Of a DNA stretch of 64,000 bases, positions 38,274-46,932 are shown in pieces. The stretch comes from Clostridiaceae bacterium (GTDB lineage: Bacteria; Bacillota; Clostridia; Oscillospirales; Acutalibacteraceae), in contig JAETSR010000007.1 of NCBI GenBank assembly GCA_021769555.1, forward strand, positions 32,017 to 96,016, given 5' to 3'. The position numbers and the translations under genes were made by a program. Position 1 is the stretch's first letter. Every line of letters begins with the position of its first letter. The notes under the pieces were generated by a model. It was not told the origin of the DNA. It saw only the letters and a list, made by a program, of their open reading frames with translations, and ran no database searches.

Positions 38274-38942
38274 TTATGGTATCGTTAATACTTGCCCGCC
38301 GTATATCAGGTTGGGATTCCCTCCAATCACCCCTTTGTTGGCGTTGTAAATCTTCGTATATTGGCTACCGTCGCCGTAAAATTTCTTGGCAATATTCCAG
38401 AGGCAGTCTCCGGCCTTTACTGTATAAGTCTTTGGCTTTACAGTATTATCCACTCGGGGCTCCTCCTTCTTCACAGTTGCCTTTTTGGTGGGAATGTCCA
38501 CCTTTACCTGCCGTACCGTGATTTCCCTGTACTCCTTCAATGAGATGCTGTACTGGTAGGTGCCAGGGTCGCCGCCCTCCTCGGAATAGTCGAAACTCTC
38601 TATGGTGACAAAAAGGTCTATCCCGCAGGCGGTCGCTATGAAGTGAACAGGCTTTTTGCTTGCTTTCCAAGTGTTGATTCGCTCCACCAGTTCAAGAGGT
38701 TTGGTGATTTTTGCAACCTTAATGCCTGGAAATCTGGTGGCCGGAAAAAAACTGGAAAAACTAAATTGCAGGGCTGGGCGGCTCTGCAGGATAACGACCT
38801 CTCCCAGCCCTGTAATGTCCATACTGTCATTTTTGCTCCCGTTGCGCGTCTGGAAAGAGGTAGGGAGTACCGGGAGCTGTATTTTCTCCTTCTCTGCGTT
38901 GTAGGAGAGCCACATTTGGTAATTCGGGGAATTAGTAGTCAT
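38274..38942 (-). CDS. LysM protein (XkdP-like)
   Basis: YTVKAGDCLWNIAKKFYGDGSQYTKIYNAN. Confidence 0.9.
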   Translation of the reverse strand: MTTNSPNYQMWLSYNAEKEKIQLPVLPTSFQTRNGSKNDSMDITGLGEVVILQSRPALQFSFSSFFPATRFPGIKVAKITKPLELVERINTWKASKKPVHFIATACGIDLFVTIESFDYSEEGGDPGTYQYSISLKEYREITVRQVKVDIPTKKATVKKEEPRVDNTVKPKTYTVKAGDCLWNIAKKFYGDGSQYTKIYNANKGVIGGNPNLIYGGQVLTIP

Positions 38943-41900
38943 AGGCCATATCTCCCTCCTCGAAGACCTCCTCCTGGAGAATGTTCATAAACACTGACTT
39001 GGCGTTGTCCATAAGCACGTCGAGAATGGTATTCTTGTCCACGCCGGTGCTACCACCGACTTCCATACGCCCACTGCCGGAAATCTCAAGGAATATTCTC
39101 TTGATTTGCTCGCCAGCGCTCTGGCGGCTCCCGCTGTCTCCTCGGGATTCCATCAGAATGGGGGAGGGCTCTGGCCGGTCGTTTAGGGCGTGTATAAGCC
39201 TGTCGGTTTCCTCTGTGGGGAATACAGTGCTGCCCTGCTGCCCGAGAATGAGTTCCGGTCCATCATCCCCGGCTATAAAGGCGTTCGGGCTCTCTGTCGT
39301 GCCGTTTGCAAAGGCATCTACTTTTCGGATAATCAGCTCCGGCCCATCCTCGCCAGCGACAAATGCGTTTTCTGCGTTTGTGGTGCCGCTTGCATGGCCG
39401 GGAACTGTGCCGCTGGTATTTACCCTTAGATTGAGAGCCGCTTGTGTCTGTAGGGCCGCTGCAACCGCAGTAGCGACCTCCCTGGCAGCCGCAACAGCGG
39501 CCCCCTTTGAGTTGCGTATGGAGCTGACGTATGCGTTAATGGTGGCCGTAGCCGAAGCTGCTGCCTCGTCGCTCAGGTTCATACCCTCGACGGTTTCCTG
39601 CATTTCTCGCTCTATTTCGTCCATCTGGGAGGTGAAGTCTGTGACCCAATCGGCGGTAGTGGCGGCAATTTCCTGCTGCTTTGCGCTGACCTCTCCGACC
39701 GTGTTTGCGAGCTCTGCGACGGCCTCTGTGTTGCCGCTGTTGATTGCCTCTGCCATGCTGGCGGATAGTCCTGCGGCCTCCTCTGTGCCCCCCTGGGCGT
39801 ATGCCATTAGAGCCTCATAGTTTTCCTGCGTAATGCCTAAGTCGGCTGCAGACGTGCTTTTAAGCACTTCTATGTTGGCTTGATAGTTGTTCCAGTAGGC
39901 GAGCTGGCTGTCGAGCGCGGCCTGGGCGTTTGCCACGGTGGCGTTCATGTACTCCTCAGATTCCATGGACGCCTGGTCGAAAAGGCCGAACTGTCCTTCC
40001 ATACTGGCAAGCGCGGATTGGTAGACTTCATCGTAGGCAGCGCACAGCTCGTCAATCCGTTCCTTCGTACTCTCAATGGCTGCGCTTACGGCCTCCTCAT
40101 AGGTGGGGGGTACCTCTGCTGCGGCCTCCTCTGCTTCTGCGAGTTTCCCCCAATACTGCTCAATCTCTGCAATACCGGCCTCGTTCTCTGCTATGCTGGC
40201 GTTGAGCTCATCTATGGCCTCCCGGTATGACTTAATGTCCGTTTGCCAAGCTGTGGCCCACTCGCCGCTGTAGGTGCCGTCCCCGTTGTCAATGATGTTG
40301 TTTGCCTCGAGCTCGGCATTGTAGTTCGCCTGAGCCTTTGCAAGCTCCTCGGTCAGTTCTTCGCGCTTGAGCAGCGCCTCTACATACGCGTCCTGGGCCT
40401 GCTCCATGCGCTGCTGTTCTGCCTGCTGCTCGCAGGCTTGGCGCATTGCCTCTGCGAAATCCACGGCGCTCCCGGAGGTCTTTTCGAACTGGGCGGCCAG
40501 GTCGGGGTAACTCTCCGCAAGCCTTTTTGTGACTGCTTCAAGCTCCTTCTCTTGGGCTCCCGTGAGGTTTGTCTGTGTGGCAAGGTCTTCATATTTTTGG
40601 ATAAGGGAAAGCGCTCCCAACTCCTGAGTGTGAATGTCCTCTGTACCGCTGTTATACTCTGTCCAGAGCTTATCAACACTCTCACATAGCGCGTCAACCT
40701 CTGCGGTGAACTCCTCGACCGTCTGGCGGCTGGCCTCAAAAGCTGCGGACAAATCGTCCACCTGGTACTTGAGCCGGGACGCCTCCTAGGAGGTCTCTCC
40801 GTACTTTTCGCAAGCCTCCTCGTACTCTGCGTTGAGGTCTTGGAGCTCATAATACTGGTTACGGGTAACTGCGGTCATGCCTGCGGTTTCGTCCTCGGCG
40901 TCCTCCATCATTGCGATAAAGGCTGCCCCCGCTGCAACAACTGCAGTTAACCCAATAGCTACCCAGCCCACCGGGCCAAGAGCAACATTAAGAGCCACGC
41001 CAAAGGTTGTTATTGCGGGGATTGCAACGGTTGTTGCGAATGAAACTGCCGCTATTCCGGCAGATACGGTTCCTATGCCTACCCCAACTGCAACGATAGC
41101 CTTGGTGAGCGTAGGGTGCTCATTGAGAAAATCACCCACGCCATTCATGACGTTGGCAAACCCGCTGGAAACCTTGTCAAGTGATGGCTGCAAGGCCTTA
41201 GTGAAAGCAGTGCTAATATTGTTGCTGGCCTTTTGCCATTTTTCCGAAAGGCTCTCTCCCGCTTCGGCGGTTTTCGCCAGTGTTCCGTCTGCTTCCTCCA
41301 GGGTGGCGGTAAAAGTGTCAACAGATACCGTACCGCTCCCGATTGCAGAAGCAAGCTGTTGCCCTGCTCTGCTCCCGAATGTTTCCACTGCGAGCGCGGT
41401 CGCGTCGGCGGCGTTCTCCATTCCGGCTATCTCTGCTATGACTTCCTGCAAGGCAGTTCCAGCGTCCTTGCCATCTTTTGAGAATCCGGTGACGGCGGTT
41501 CGCATGGCCGTGATGGCTGTGGTGCTGTTTATGCCTGCCAGCTCAAAGTCGGCCAGCATTTGGATGGTGCTGTCAAGGGAAAGCCCCGCCTGCTGGAAAG
41601 AGGCTGCGCCCGTAATGAGCGTGTTGCTTAGGGTGTCTACCGAAGCGCCGGAAATCTGCCCAGCATAAGCGAGCCTGTCCATTACCCTCTCTACGTCTTG
41701 GCCCTCGACGCCCCACTGGTTCATGACCTTAGTGACGTTTTGTACCGAGCCGACGACGTTTGTGCCAGTGATGTCCGCGAAGTCCAAAAATTTCCCGGTT
41801 ACGTCTGTAAGGGCGTCCCCGGTCAGGCCCATGCGCGTGTTGATCTCGCCAACCGCTGCCGCAGCGTCTTGCAGTGAATCATCGTTTCCGGCATACGCTT

Positions 41901-42525
41901 CGAGCATACTACTCCCGAGGCTGTCAAGAGCTGCCCCGGTTGCTCCTGTCGCATTTACGACAACCTTTTCGGCCTCGCTGTAAGCGTCAACGAGCTCGTA
42001 GGCTGCCTCAGATATCTCTTTTATTGTGGCGGTGATTCCCGCCGCCGCAAGGGCGCTGGCTATGCTATTTACAGCGCTGGTGCCTTTGTCTCCCATTTCC
42101 TCCTGAGCCTGTCCGGTCTCCTCGCTCTGCTCTGCCATCTTGTCGAGCGCTTCCTCTGCCTCCTGGGCTGCCGTCTGCTCAGATTCAAGTGCCTCCTGCG
42201 TCTTGTAGCCCATTTCGACAAGCTCCTCGGTGGTGTAAATGGCCTCAAGCGCAGATTTGTCATAGTTCCCGATGGCGTCAGTCCAGTAGTCCGTTTGGTC
42301 GGCAGCGTCGCTGGCCGATGTGCTATATGAAGTCAGAGAGGTGGCTACCCCATCAACGGACGAGGCAGTGGCTGTCGCGCTGCTTACAATCCCGTCAAAG
42401 GCCCCGCTTGCGGTATCTCCGGCCTGTTCAAACTGCTCCACCATGGACATACCCGCTTGTGATACGTTGGCAATGGCGTCGCTCATCCTGTCCACTAAGC
42501 TGAATACTGCGGTTAGGTTTGGCAC
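38932..42525 (-). pseudogene. Tape measure protein interrupted by an in-frame TAG at 40786-40788
   Basis: ORFs 40786-42525 and 38932-40761 share one frame: ...YGETS*EASRLKYQVDDL... Confidence 0.88.
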
Positions 42526-42597
42526 TGTTCCACCTCCCGAATTTTATTTACAAAAGAAAAAGGCTCCGCGCTAGGCGAAGTCTTTTTTACATATTCC

Positions 42598-43356
42598 TTA
42601 TTCTGCAATCCCAGCTTTAGCTTTATTGCGGGCATCCAATTCCTTCTCCCAATCGTCGCCCATCTCCTCAAGGGCCTCTTGGCGAATCCTCTCTCGCTCC
42701 TCAGAAGTTAAGCCAAGGATTGAGTTGAGCCGTTTTCGCTCGTCAATCCGTTCTTTTTCCAAGATTACATCAAGATGTTCAACCTCTCTCTGAGCGCGTT
42801 CCGCATTTATGTCATCGTGATTAAGCCGGTACAGTCTAGCCAGCCATGCAGTGGCAGCGCGTTTTTGACCGGTTTCGTGTTCAGAAGAAATTCTTTCGGA
42901 TAGTAGCCGAATGAGTAGGCGTAAATCGTCTTCCTGGCTGTCCATCTGGGCTGCCATTATTTTTTCTGGTTCAAGAAGGTTTGTACTGCCTAAAACGTCA
43001 TAATAGCGCAATAAAGCGCTGTTTGTTGTTACAGTTTCCTGTCCACATTCTGTCAAAATGTACCGTAGGGGGATGTTTGCTGCCTCCAATTCGGATTCAG
43101 AATAAATCTGCCCTACGCGCTCAATGAGTTCCGCTTTTTTTCTGCCAGCTTTAGCGCCTTTGGATTTTAGCAGGCTGCGGAGAGTTTGCATATCGGAGTA
43201 GGGCAGGCTTTGCATAAATGTTCCGACACGCAAATACCCTTCATTGCACAATTTGGCAATTGTTTCCGGGTACCCGGCAATATAGACCACATCATCCTGC
43301 GTTCGCCCTGTGGCCTTGCTTAATATTCTTATTTCCTCTGGTGACAACACATACAA
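42598..43356 (-). CDS. Moron protein with SAP-like motif and MuF-like C-terminal tail
   Basis: LRSLLKSKGAKAGRKKAELIERV; C-terminus matches that of the MuF gene. Confidence 0.75.
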   Translation of the reverse strand: MYVLSPEEIRILSKATGRTQDDVVYIAGYPETIAKLCNEGYLRVGTFMQSLPYSDMQTLRSLLKSKGAKAGRKKAELIERVGQIYSESELEAANIPLRYILTECGQETVTTNSALLRYYDVLGSTNLLEPEKIMAAQMDSQEDDLRLLIRLLSERISSEHETGQKRAATAWLARLYRLNHDDINAERAQREVEHLDVILEKERIDERKRLNSILGLTSEERERIRQEALEEMGDDWEKELDARNKAKAGIAE

Positions 43357-43375: not shown

Positions 43376-43894
43376 CTACAGGACTATCTTCTCGTACTTA
43401 TACCGCCATATATATTTTCCTGCCCGTTTCTGCTTTCCTCTTAAACAAGCGTTTATGCTGGGGAGGCTTACGCCAGTTGCCCTTGCTGCTGCGCTCTGGC
43501 CGGGGAACTCTGCAATCACTGACATAGTCTCGGGGTTTATCTGCAATATGGGAGTGCGGCTCCCATTCTTGGCAGTAGCCCTGGCGGTTCTACTGCCATA
43601 GTTGGTGTTCTCCTTTGGAGTAGCCCACTCAAGATTGCTGGCCCGGTTATTTTCGGGGTTTTCGTCCTTGTGGTTGACCTGCGGCTTTCCTTCCGGGTTT
43701 GGTACAAACGCCTCTGCCACAATTCTATGCAGCCTGAGCGACTTTCTTACTCCGTTCTTGCCCACAAGAGAAATCTGCATATATCCATGCTTTTTTCTTG
43801 TGGGCTCGAGAACACGGATTCGCTTGATTCTTCCGAGGTTGCTGACCTCGTATAGACCTTCATACCCAACTACCGGTTTCCATGTTTCTTTCAT
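43376..43894 (-). CDS. NUMOD4-HNH endonuclease with NUMOD1-like C-terminus
   Basis: ETWKPVVGYEGLYEVSNLGRIK; LHRIVAEAF...VNHKDENPENN..NLEW. Confidence 0.9.
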   Translation of the reverse strand: MKETWKPVVGYEGLYEVSNLGRIKRIRVLEPTRKKHGYMQISLVGKNGVRKSLRLHRIVAEAFVPNPEGKPQVNHKDENPENNRASNLEWATPKENTNYGSRTARATAKNGSRTPILQINPETMSVIAEFPGQSAAARATGVSLPSINACLRGKQKRAGKYIWRYKYEKIVL

Positions 43895-43902
43895 GGGGGG
43901 CC

Positions 43903-44295
43903 TCAGCGCTTACTCAATCCCGCCTTATCCGCGAGGTCATTTCGTGCTTTAAGAATTTTATCGTAAGTATCAGAAGTTCCCTTTAGGCTATCATTGAAGA
44001 TGTCTGACGAAAGAAGTGTTATCGAGGTGCTAATCGAGAAATCTGCGGCCTTATGAGCGTCACCGGTTTCAAGGTTATCGACGTACTCCATTTCGTCCTT
44101 GAGCTTGGACAGTTTTTCGCTTGCTTCACTATAGCTCAGCTTACTATCAAGATAATCATCTGCAACTCCTACTGCGCTTTTAGCCACAGAGATTGCCTTG
44201 TCGCTTGCTTTTGTTTTCCCTCCACATGAAGAAAAGGTTAGAAGAACTAGGATAAGGGGGAGGACGATAATAAAGAATCTGCGGAGATGTTTCAT
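43903..44295 (-). CDS. Moron lipoprotein
   Basis: MKHLRR, hydrophobic stretch, lipobox FSSC; has its own promoter. Confidence 0.8.
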   Translation of the reverse strand: MKHLRRFFIIVLPLILVLLTFSSCGGKTKASDKAISVAKSAVGVADDYLDSKLSYSEASEKLSKLKDEMEYVDNLETGDAHKAADFSISTSITLLSSDIFNDSLKGTSDTYDKILKARNDLADKAGLSKR

Positions 44296-44327
44296 GGGGT
44301 GCCTCCTGTTGATTTTTTACAATTTGT

Positions 44328-44358
44328 ATTATACGCCCCCCCCCCCCCTGTTTGTCAA
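44328..44358 (-). promoter_or_regulatory. Moron promoter with a poly-G13 spacer
   Basis: TTGACA-AACA-G13-CG-TATAAT, 19-bp spacer. Confidence 0.85.
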
Positions 44359-44383
44359 TAGTTTTCGGGAAAATTGACGGAAA

Positions 44384-45015
44384 TTACTTGTAAGTATCGT
44401 GCCGGACGGGGTGCTCCCCTTCCTCAATTTCCGAGGCCATATAAAAGAGCTGCGTTCTCCGGGGCATAGCCTCGAACTCCTCCATCCGTAGTCCATGTCT
44501 TTGCCAGAGAACGTGAGCCCAGTAGGCGGTACTCCCGGCCTCGCGGATTAGTTTTTTGCGTCGTCCAGCTCCTCGTCGTCATTAACCTCCTTGGAAAGCC
44601 CCAGCACCCTCATTACCATCCGGACGACGTGCTGGTACTCGTCGGTACGGAGGAATACCTTGAGCGGCATTTCCGTGATGTCGAGGCAGCCGTAATATTC
44701 CATGAGCTCTTTGTCCTGCAGGTTGGGGTACTGCAGCGCCTCGGCAATGATGTGGCGGGTCGCCCGAGCGCTGTCCTTTTCGGTCTTCCAGACGACCTCG
44801 CCGAGGGCAATCAGCGGATTCCCTTTCTTGTCGGTCGCCATGCTGCGCTTACGGTAGGCGTCGTTGATTTGGTTAATGCGCTCCTGGGAGAGCACCTTAA
44901 CCTCGAGCTGGATAACTTTCCCATCATCATCCTTGATGGTCTCCGGGCCGGGGACGGTGACGATTTCGGGCTCACGGTTTCTCATAAAATACTTCAAACT
45001 TTTCTTGTCTGCCAT
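44384..45015 (-). CDS. Tail assembly chaperone (XkdN-like; short form 44548-45015) with predicted -1 frameshift extension to 44384
   Basis: A AAA AAC at 44551-44557 just before TAA; the -1 frame gives LIREAGSTAYWAHVLWQRHGLRMEEF...TYK. Confidence 0.8.
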
Positions 45016-45084: not shown

Positions 45085-45513
45085 TTAGATGAAATCCTTA
45101 GCGGAAAAGGCTATGTTATCCTCCAAGACCTGGCCCTCGCTGTCCAGGTCTAAGAGCGTGAGATCGCCGGTCAGGACGACGCCCACGGCAGTAATAACCT
45201 CGCTGCCGAACTGCTTGTAGAAGTCGCTCTGCTTGTCCTCCATGATACCCTGGATGGTCATTTCCGGGGTCTCGTGGGTTTCCTGGTAATACTTGATTTT
45301 TTCCTTGAGCCACATGGTGTTGCGGCGGCGGGTAATAGTGCCGGTGATAGAATAGCCAAGCCACCGGGTGCTGGGGGTTATCTCCCCAAGCTGTCTGCCG
45401 CTCCAGGTGTCCGGGGTCATTTTGATGTTGCACTTGATACTGTCCATGATTTCGACACCATCAAGGAACACGTGGCCCTCGCGCACGGAAATCGGGGAAT
45501 GATTGTATTCCAT
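45085..45513 (-). CDS. Tail tube protein (XkdM-like)
   Basis: ISVREGHVFLDG; position after the sheath. Confidence 0.85.
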   Translation of the reverse strand: MEYNHSPISVREGHVFLDGVEIMDSIKCNIKMTPDTWSGRQLGEITPSTRWLGYSITGTITRRRNTMWLKEKIKYYQETHETPEMTIQGIMEDKQSDFYKQFGSEVITAVGVVLTGDLTLLDLDSEGQVLEDNIAFSAKDFI

Positions 45514-45525
45514 AAATTATCCTCC

Positions 45526-46932
45526 TTATCTGGTGTTGACGGTGAAGTACATTTTTTCAGCGCTGTCAACCGCCTGCAGGCCGATGTTGAAGAATGTCTC
45601 GTCGTCGTAGCTGGCCTCCCGGTCTACCAGGAAGTCCCGGCTATAATCGACATTGGTAATGGCTCCGGCCTCGTAGAACAGCTTGAGAATGGTGTTCCCC
45701 AGACCCTCCATGATGTCCCAGCCGCGAGGTTCGTTGTCGAACTTGTTGGGCGGGAAGTTGACCTTAACATATTCCTGGAAGGTGTCGAATACGCGGATGA
45801 CGCGATTCTTGCGGTAGCTCTTGTCTTTCTTGTTCTGCTTTGAGAAGGTGGTGAGGGAGTTGATGTCGTACTCGACCACGACCTCGTCCTCCTCGTTGAC
45901 GGAGAAGAAGAACTCGCCAGCCTTGATGGCGGCGATAGCCTCGTCGTTGCTCTTAGGCCCGACAACAGCCGTCGCTCCTTCGTACAGGTTGTAGGTCAGG
46001 CTCTCGATGTAAGAGGCCCCTGCGGTCGCTCCGGCCACCCAGGCGCATACCTCGGCAGTGCTCAGGTCGTTCCCATCAATGGAGATACTGTTCGTGACAT
46101 TGATAATGCCCTCGTAGTCCATCCGGCCTGCGTTGGGAATAACAGCCTGTACGCCTCTGCCCATGCTGTCTCTCATATACTTGATTTTGGTGAGCACGGC
46201 CTGTTTGACATTCGTCGCCTCCTGGCCGTCGAAGGGGAAACACACCGTATTAAAGCGAATGCTCTCCCATGCGTCAATGAAGGCGGTGATATCGGCGTTG
46301 GTGGTCTCCTCATCGGTACCGCCGGACAGGTTCGTGCCTGCGGCCTCTCCGAGGCTGCCTGTGCCCTTGAAGTCCAGGTACGGGTTATTCTGCTCGATAA
46401 GCTCCTCGATGGTCTCCAGGCCCTCGTATTCCGTAACCTTTGCACCGTCAAGATGGACAAGGACATCATAGCCTCCCAGAGGGTTGGCGTCCACGGTCAC
46501 CGTGAATGCGTTGCCCCTTGTGCCGCCGTACTTGGCAATGGCTGTAAGGGTGTTTGTGGTGGCCGACGCTCCTTCGCTTCCCGGGTCTGCGGGAATAGAC
46601 ATGGAGATTTCCGCCTGCGCCTCTTTGCCCTCGCTCATGACATAGACGTAAACGGTGGTAGCCCGCTTGAACGCCTCTCGAATGAGCAACATCTGGCGGT
46701 TGGGGTCATCGTCGTAGATACTGTAGCCAAATGTGGCCGCTCCTGCGTCCGGGCTTTCATTTGTCAGTTTGATAAACTGCTTACCAGGGCCATAGTTGGC
46801 TTTCGGGAGCGGGACAATAACGGTTCCTCTGGTGCCTGCTCCAACTACGGCAATATCCCGGCTGCTCTCGAAGTTCATATAAGTGCCCGGGCGCACCTTC
46901 CCGACGGCCTTGTCGAACTTTCCTCCTGCCAT
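45526..46932 (-). CDS. Tail sheath protein (XkdK-like)
   Basis: MAGGKF...KVRPGTYMNF; VEYDINSLT; YRKNRVIRVFD. Confidence 0.92.
   Translation of the reverse strand: MAGGKFDKAVGKVRPGTYMNFESSRDIAVVGAGTRGTVIVPLPKANYGPGKQFIKLTNESPDAGAATFGYSIYDDDPNRQMLLIREAFKRATTVYVYVMSEGKEAQAEISMSIPADPGSEGASATTNTLTAIAKYGGTRGNAFTVTVDANPLGGYDVLVHLDGAKVTEYEGLETIEELIEQNNPYLDFKGTGSLGEAAGTNLSGGTDEETTNADITAFIDAWESIRFNTVCFPFDGQEATNVKQAVLTKIKYMRDSMGRGVQAVIPNAGRMDYEGIINVTNSISIDGNDLSTAEVCAWVAGATAGASYIESLTYNLYEGATAVVGPKSNDEAIAAIKAGEFFFSVNEEDEVVVEYDINSLTTFSKQNKKDKSYRKNRVIRVFDTFQEYVKVNFPPNKFDNEPRGWDIMEGLGNTILKLFYEAGAITNVDYSRDFLVDREASYDDETFFNIGLQAVDSAEKMYFTVNTR

Follow-up and report, generated by a model that had tools for sequence, protein, structure and literature searches.

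A run of guanines between the -35 and -10 hexamers of a prophage promoter changed its length repeatedly between near-identical phages. The promoter headed a small cassette of three genes, which encode a lipoprotein, an HNH endonuclease and a protein of 252 aa. The best overall explanation, which we regarded as probable, was a consensus promoter of the sigmaA/sigma70 type whose spacer contains a hypermutable run of G's that serves as a slippage switch controlling a moron. Below, the window denotes the whole 64,000-nt stretch of DNA that was analysed, and positions refer to it unless another contig is named.

The promoter and the cassette behind it

On the minus strand, positions 44358-44328 read TTGACA-AACA-G13-CG-TATAAT. 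The -35 hexamer TTGACA was located at 44358-44353, the G13 homopolymer at 44348-44336 and the -10 hexamer TATAAT at 44333-44328. The AACA-G13-CG spacer was 19 bp long, and two G fewer would bring it to 17 bp. The preliminary description of this DNA had reported a perfect pair of hexamers separated by a spacer that contains a run of G's, and the minus-strand sequence agreed exactly with its coordinates and wording. Downstream, the Shine-Dalgarno sequence AGGAGG (44307-44302, minus strand) was placed 20 nt past the -10 hexamer and 6 nt before the ATG (44295-44293, minus strand) of the 130-aa ORF for the lipoprotein. The predicted 5' UTR of this gene was about 25 nt long, and the 32 nt compared as 5' UTR were the same in both phage clades described below.

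The tract was situated in a 128-nt intergenic region between a frameshift-extension ORF of the tail assembly chaperone and the lipoprotein gene. An intragenic frameshift switch was therefore rejected, as the tract was crossed by short spurious ORFs only. Moreover, we found nothing at the promoter that would rescue the 19-bp (G13) allele. Namely, an alternative -35 hexamer giving a 17-bp spacing at G13 was rejected because GACAAA matched the consensus at 2 of 6 positions, an extended -10 because TATAAT was not preceded by TG, and a structured 5' UTR because its z-score was -0.9.

Counts of perfect TTGACA-TATAAT pairs in the genome placed this spacing in the context of its host. There were 115 pairs with a 17-bp spacer, whereas each of the other spacings held only 0-11 (11 at 16 bp, 7 at 18 bp, 3 at 19 bp and none at 14 or 15 bp). 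Therefore, this host truly used TTGACA/TATAAT at 17 bp, and the G13 site was one of just three perfect pairs at 19 bp. The longest homopolymer in the spacers of the 115 promoters was 6 nt, and the G13 tract was the only homopolymer of at least 7 nt in a consensus-quality promoter spacer genome-wide. Additionally, G/C runs of any kind fell off quickly with length in this 3.01-Mb genome of 56% GC: 1329 runs of 6 nt, 143 of 7 nt and 5 of 8 nt were followed by a thin tail, and several of the longer runs were poly-G junk at contig ends. When the 6-to-7 ratio was extrapolated, about 2e-4 runs of at least 13 nt were expected per genome. The G13 tract was thus far beyond chance, and its origin as a chance event was rejected on these counts.

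According to the Pfam and PHROG matches, the surrounding module consisted of PBSX/XkdN-type myophage tail genes, all on the minus strand. The sheath (45526-46932) and tube (45085-45513) genes were followed by the XkdN-type tail assembly chaperone (44548-45015; Phage_TAC_5, phrog_389), whose frameshift-extension ORF ended at 44424 and encoded a peptide conserved in L006, L010, L015 and L016. On the other side of the cassette was the tape measure gene (38932-42525, with its GTG at 42525), after which came a gene for a LysM protein. In most relatives the tape measure was a single ORF of 1197-1199 aa, and here it was split into 579 and 609 aa. The split was at 40786-40788, and the break was probably real and shared rather than an assembly error because the same 579-aa call was made in one other sample (L026, SRR13008592).

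Within the cassette, the lipoprotein gene came first, followed by the HNH endonuclease gene and the gene for the 252-aa protein. Their GC contents were 43.5, 50 and 47%, respectively, versus 55-57% in the tail genes. An intrinsic-terminator-like hairpin (CTTCGC-CTAGC-GCGGAG; 42552-42580, minus strand) was located in the gap between the cassette and the tape measure, and it was followed by CC and the U-rich run UUUUUCUUUU. Phages of clade B (defined below) kept this hairpin and U-tract, with a 7-bp stem and an A/G swap on the 3' arm, despite 26% divergence of the intergenic stretch. In prophages of other genera (L009 and L010), the tape measure came directly after the chaperone or its extension, whereas 1.9 kb lay in between here. 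Insertion between otherwise adjacent genes, a promoter and a terminator of its own and a deviant composition are the hallmarks of a moron. Since the cassette was inserted between genes that are elsewhere adjacent, had its own promoter and terminator and was of foreign GC content, it carried these hallmarks and, judged by its sequence, is a low-GC moron that separates the tail chaperone gene from the tape measure gene. The gene calls and the adjacency seen in L009 and L010 also bore out the position that had been assigned to the promoter beforehand, that is, at the head of a lipoprotein-HNH-252-aa cassette between these two tail genes.

The lipoprotein gene (43903-44295, minus strand) encoded 130 aa with a signal peptide (N-terminus MKHLRRFFIIVLPLILVLLTFSSC) and a lipobox cysteine, Cys24. 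Of 85 members of the family, at least 90% retained this cysteine, and the relatives carried an L-A/S-G-C lipobox. The family comprised 228 representative clusters in a library of 1.8 billion proteins. The AlphaFold2 model (pLDDT 92.5) predicted a four-helix bundle behind the lipid anchor. When this model was compared with the PDB by Foldseek, only generic four-helix bundles were returned (E>0.1), and the best viral match was an unannotated gut-virome 'Lipoprotein' (E=1.6e-3). A profile search of the PDB gave signal-peptide or coiled-coil noise only, and there was no family match in Pfam (E<=0.01, including Ltp), PHROG, PADLOC or NCBIfam. The protein was therefore rejected as Ltp, as a spanin and as a known defence protein, there being no significant match in sequence or fold. 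The role in superinfection exclusion previously suggested for it found no support in its generic four-helix fold or in the Pfam, PADLOC and NCBIfam searches. A role at the cell surface, such as blocking the entry of related phages, was a guess to which we gave rather low odds.

Searches with the lipoprotein for related loci in viral contigs found none, and those in genome contigs found two copies only, chromosomal or from metagenome-assembled genomes. Lone chromosomal copies of the family were present in Oscillospiraceae-type metagenome-assembled genomes (L002-L005 and L058). They adjoined a two-component system or had an unannotated 394-aa ORF upstream, and their promoters were ordinary ones without a homopolymer.

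The second gene (43376-43894, minus strand) started 8 nt past the lipoprotein stop and encoded a 172-aa endonuclease with NUMOD4 (5.7e-13) and HNH_3 (7.9e-11) domains in Pfam and with matches to phrog_59 (5.8e-52) and to HEase of PADLOC (2e-31). By these matches, it is a typical free-standing homing-type endonuclease similar to I-HmuI. The third and last gene (42598-43356, minus strand), after a gap of 19 nt, encoded the 252-aa protein with a SAP-like motif, for which the match was faint. Phages of clade B had a very divergent version of 277 aa in its place.

The same lipoprotein family also occupied the slot between chaperone and tape measure in three more distant prophages (L006, L015 and L016). 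In the sequence of each of them, a putative strong promoter of its own was found directly after the chaperone extension. Since all three carried one there, a promoter at this slot was a conserved feature of the cassette. The HNH gene was missing from these distant cassettes, and it had therefore joined the lipoprotein later. The promoter of L015 was TTGACA-N18-TGaTATAAT with only GGGG in its spacer, and that of L016 was TTGAAA-N17-TATTAT. In L006 (L006:3590-3640, a Logan contig of ERR12723933), the promoter read TTGACA-TTTTTGC-G8-TACACT, with a 15-bp spacer that was two G's under 17 bp. L006 represented a different XkdN-type prophage in which this promoter preceded a 420-aa TPR protein and the lipoprotein of the same family. 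At least two lineages had acquired a G-run within the spacer. In L006, a pair of 16-nt direct repeats (GACGTTATTTGGGGAA) was present immediately upstream of the -35 hexamer.

Tract length among related phages

We compared the window with assembled contigs of other samples from ENA and Logan, which were consensus sequences from short-read assemblies. Dozens of these contigs carried the chaperone and the lipoprotein, the latter in identical or closely similar form. Exact-pattern scans for the promoter in genome, viral and metagenome contig collections gave no match, and neither did a megablast of 12 kb against a phage collection. The promoter was spanned by 16 contigs from other samples, which together with the window provided 17 alleles. 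The -35 hexamer was unchanged in 16 of 16 spanning relatives, and the -10 hexamer was likewise unchanged in all of them.

The most common allele was AACA-G13-CG with a spacer of 19 bp, which was found in the window and in L019 (60x coverage), L020, L023, L035, L046 and L049 (seven alleles in total). AACA-G11-CG with a spacer of 17 bp was found in five contigs (L018, L021, L051, L052 and L053) that came from samples of four different studies. AACA-G12-CG (18 bp; L022), AACA-G10-CG (16 bp; L050) and AACA-G9-CG (15 bp; L047, 3.6x) were each represented once. Two further variants with 18-bp spacers were AAC-G13-CG (L029, 2.7x) and AAC-G7AG5-CG (L028). These lengths should be read with caution, since long G runs are error-prone in short-read assemblies and some of the spanning contigs had low coverage. 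The tract was neither invariant nor an artefact of one assembly: lengths from G9 to G13 were present among the 17 alleles, and the tract occurred with unchanged hexamers in 16 other independent assemblies, on which grounds a single-assembly artefact was rejected. Moreover, the G11 form that had been predicted as optimal occurred naturally beside G9, G10, G12 and G13 in otherwise near-identical phages.

The DNA around the tract was stable. Namely, the 65 nt upstream of the -35 hexamer and the 5' UTR contained zero substitutions in the good-quality spanning contigs, and two low-coverage contigs, L047 and L029, differed upstream of the -35. All homopolymers shorter than the tract within the 3.3-kb flanks were invariant across the contigs. 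More than 20 additional contigs started or stopped in the tract, which was compatible with heterogeneity or with poor reads, and the poly-C head at the tract in L024 and L025 was a de Bruijn artefact.

Pairwise comparison of the flanks over up to 3.3 kb separated the phages into two clades and a number of mosaics. Members of clade A (the window, L018, L020-L023, L046 and L049) differed by 0-5 SNPs and yet carried G11, G12 and G13. Similarly, members of clade B (L028, L029, L035 and L050-L052) differed by 0-8 SNPs and yet carried G10, G11, G13 and both of the 18-bp variants. Among the mosaics, L019 had G13, L053 had G11 and L047 had G9. Thus, G11 and G13 each recurred in both clades. A private SNP and G11 were both common to L018 and L021, which came from samples of different studies. 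From 2100 alignment columns of the flanks, which excluded the promoter, we built a maximum-likelihood tree of 13 sequences. On this 13-taxon tree, at least six changes of tract state were required, while the within-clade branches measured 0-0.001 per site. In other words, the changes in one 13-bp tract were about equal in number to those in two kb of flanks.

The two clades were 7-8% apart in their tail genes, with 6-8% in the flanking tail genes and HNH, and the third cassette gene was about 48% different between them. Within the block from the chaperone extension to the lipoprotein (43903-44547), the difference was 0-1.8% with zero non-coding substitutions. This block was either recently exchanged between the lineages or tightly conserved, and from its sequence it looks like exchange. 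In the good-quality contigs, the tract was the sole moving part within the block.

A proposed spacer-length switch and the alternatives to it

In the mechanism that we propose, slipped-strand mispairing during replication would add or remove G's, and the spacer length would shift between 15 and 19 bp. The G11 allele (17 bp) would have full strength, G10 and G12 (16 and 18 bp) would be intermediate, and G9 and G13 (15 and 19 bp), the latter being the allele of the window, would be weak. The promoter would drive a self-contained unit of the lipoprotein, the HNH endonuclease and the 252-aa protein that is closed by the intrinsic terminator. The carrier would be a temperate myophage of the PBSX/XkdN type with an Oscillospiraceae-like host in the gut. 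With such changes in spacer length, lineages of lysogens would differ heritably and reversibly in their dose of the lipoprotein at the surface and of the two other cassette proteins.

The hexamers presumably fire in the lysogen, and expression would be expected to track spacer length, as judged from general spacer-length rules and from the values reported for porA. In the latter case, expression was high with 11G, 2.2-fold lower with 10G and 13-fold lower with 9G (Tauseef 2013, PMC3639595). By analogy with porA, where two bases off the optimum meant 13-fold less protein (PMC3639595), the earlier suggestion that expression is probably low in the G13 allele of the window was a reasonable one. 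However, the ON/OFF behaviour that came with it should give way to graded volume control, which probably fits better. The tract probably acts as a heritable dimmer, as known from Neisseria, on the phage of a Gram-positive gut anaerobe. Switching within a population may further be fast and under selection. Even in the G11 allele, promoter strength may be reduced by the high G content of the spacer.

A more specific form of this proposal was a selected contingency locus carried by the phage. Through slippage of the G tract, lysogens of a gut Firmicute would then bet-hedge between making and silencing a surface lipoprotein that blocks the entry of related phages, and a co-transcribed homing endonuclease that attacks competitors would be under the same control. 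The G8 run at the same promoter position in L006 pointed toward such a selected locus, which we nevertheless put forward only tentatively.

The alternative that survived best, although we considered it unlikely, was that both the promoter and the slippage are real and that the variation is neutral, with the tract being a mutational hot spot or the promoter drifting out of register, and with no benefit to lysogens from the heterogeneity. The predicted weak G13 was indeed the commonest allele (7 of 17), which was also compatible with the promoter being lost; on the other hand, the optimal G11 recurred in both clades and in a mosaic. The prophage copy had a broken tape measure and parts of it may be decaying, but the tract was placed exactly between two perfect hexamers that were unchanged in all spanning contigs. 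Moreover, the surrounding non-coding DNA was free of substitutions in the good-quality contigs across clades with a 7-8% difference in their tail genes. Finally, the homologous morons of L015 and L016 had no long tract, whereas the second prophage, L006, had G8 at the same promoter position, and long G runs were otherwise strongly avoided in the genome.

It was considerably less plausible that the length differences were technical, that is, produced by slippage of library or sequencing polymerases and by assembler choices around a single true length of a fixed promoter. Consensus errors of this kind would give a scatter of about one base round one length, whereas two classes 2 bases apart were observed (five G11 and seven G13 alleles), and the G13 class included a contig with 60x coverage. 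A technical origin could draw on the more than 20 contigs that ended at or inside the tract, some with de Bruijn artefacts (the poly-C heads of L024 and L025), on the 2.7-4x coverage of some spanning contigs and on the poly-G junk at the end of contig C72 in the genome's own assembly. However, the shorter homopolymers in the 3.3-kb flanks were invariant, and L018 and L021 shared the same private SNP together with G11 although they came from different studies.

We also gave very little weight to a promoter of the lytic cycle that boosts the HNH endonuclease and the 252-aa protein or re-initiates tail-gene transcription, thereby tuning phage-phage competition or virion cargo rather than the phenotype of the lysogen. 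The cassette was inside a late tail operon and included a homing-type HNH with a PADLOC HEase match. However, a host sigmaA consensus promoter together with its own terminator and low GC is what classically marks a moron expressed from the prophage. In addition, the gene that came first and was best conserved encoded a secreted lipoprotein whose family was also chromosomal (L002-L005 and L058), and in relatives this lipoprotein was present while the HNH gene or the gene for the 252-aa protein was absent.

Relation to known systems and other G/C runs

The slippage switch that we favour would be of the kind known from porA and opc, here on a temperate phage whose host is a Gram-positive gut anaerobe. 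In Neisseria meningitidis, the poly-G of porA and the poly-C of opc are positioned in the spacer separating the -35 from the -10 (van der Ende 1995 and Sarkari 1994, as cited in PMC5084427). The promoter described here resembled them in several respects: it was of the sigma70 type, about 9-13 nt of its spacer were a single-base run of G or C, G11 corresponded to the optimal 17-bp spacer, the gene under its predicted control encoded a surface protein, and tract length differed between close strains. On the features that were tested, namely position, consensus, polymorphism and over-representation, the match was complete. Changes of 1-2 bases give graded expression in porA and opc, and here the same would be expected from spacer length. 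The differences were in the host, which was a mucosal Proteobacterium there and a Gram-positive-type gut anaerobe here, and in the location, which was here the tail operon of a temperate phage with a three-gene cassette including a homing endonuclease.

Morons, as Hendrix and Juhala used the term, carry their own promoter and terminator, as do lambda bor or lom and HK97 gp15, and the known ones are described as constitutive or regulated by a host factor (PhoP in the case of bor). The cassette resembled them in its insertion between two genes that neighbour each other in related phages, its deviant GC content, its host-type promoter, its terminator and its lipoprotein. In contrast to them, its promoter spacer was a length-variable homopolymer, and our search of the literature found no described prophage moron with a homopolymer promoter spacer.

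Hypermutable polyG tracts have been described in Campylobacter phages (Sorensen et al. 2021, Cell Rep 35:109214, as cited in PMC12823448), and the likeness lay in a phage-borne poly-G that, according to the citing article, yields heritable phenotypic diversity by slippage (PMC12823448). The tract in the window differed from them in being non-coding: it occupied a promoter spacer at the head of an accessory cassette in a temperate phage. The Campylobacter tracts reportedly lie within coding sequences of lytic phages, in genes for receptor-binding proteins, and act by frameshift.

Another comparison was provided by Ltp, the lipoprotein with which the prophage TP-J34 of Streptococcus thermophilus blocks the entry of DNA (PMC3952083). 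Both proteins were prophage-encoded lipoproteins anchored at the surface of a Gram-positive host, with a signal peptide and a lipobox cysteine. However, the lipoprotein in the window had no Pfam match (and was thus not Lipoprotein_Ltp) and was predicted to form a single four-helix bundle. Additionally, the Ltp gene belongs to a lysogeny module, whereas the lipoprotein gene here was in a tail operon.

Simple-sequence contingency loci are textbook knowledge for a handful of mucosal pathogens. To our knowledge, they have barely been documented in Gram-positive gut anaerobes, and we know of none at the promoter of a prophage moron cassette. If the switch works, lysogenic conversion would be stochastic and heritable rather than constitutive, and the phenotypes of gut strains could hinge on one G that is mis-called or broken on in most assemblies. 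In this case, homopolymer length at such promoters in metagenomes would represent a biological state. The alleles from G9 to G13 offered a clean natural series for promoter-spacer rules in an Oscillospiraceae host. If the reading as a selected switch is true, then homopolymer promoter switches, together with the G8 of L006, would be a widespread and undescribed way of regulating accessory genes in gut temperate phages.

The remaining G/C runs of 8-9 nt in the genome, outside the window, were mostly located in or beside DNA methyltransferase genes of other mobile regions. The runs described here were at C16:63202-77115 (L055) and C9:155315 (L056). Two Dam-family genes had a G/C run just ahead of the NPPY motif, one N6_N4 methylase gene had a G9 about 30 nt past its start, and one run was found at a fragmented C5 methylase gene. 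The run-bearing methylase genes were candidates for phase-variable, phasevarion-like loci. In addition, one G9 was located immediately 5' of the start codon (ATG) of a short ORF that had no annotation, and a gene for an SPFH-domain protein followed about 180 nt downstream.

A G10 run was present 3.6 kb past the end of the window (C23:99658-99667, corresponding to L054:3642-3651). It was in frame (Gly-Gly-Gly) within a PAPS-reductase-like gene of phrog_424 that may be part of the same prophage. This gene consisted of two overlapping ORFs, and the frameshift between them was about 100-190 nt downstream of the G10 and not at the run itself.

Finally, a G15 at C1:44541-44555 and a G13 at C72:181680-181692 were both close to contig ends. 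Beyond the G13, the C72 sequence was poly-G-rich junk to the contig end. Both runs adjoined a similar sequence of about 45 nt (..AGTAATTT..GGTTGATT..TAACA.TTTCTCACC.TTCTGT) that looked like a repeated element at assembly breaks.
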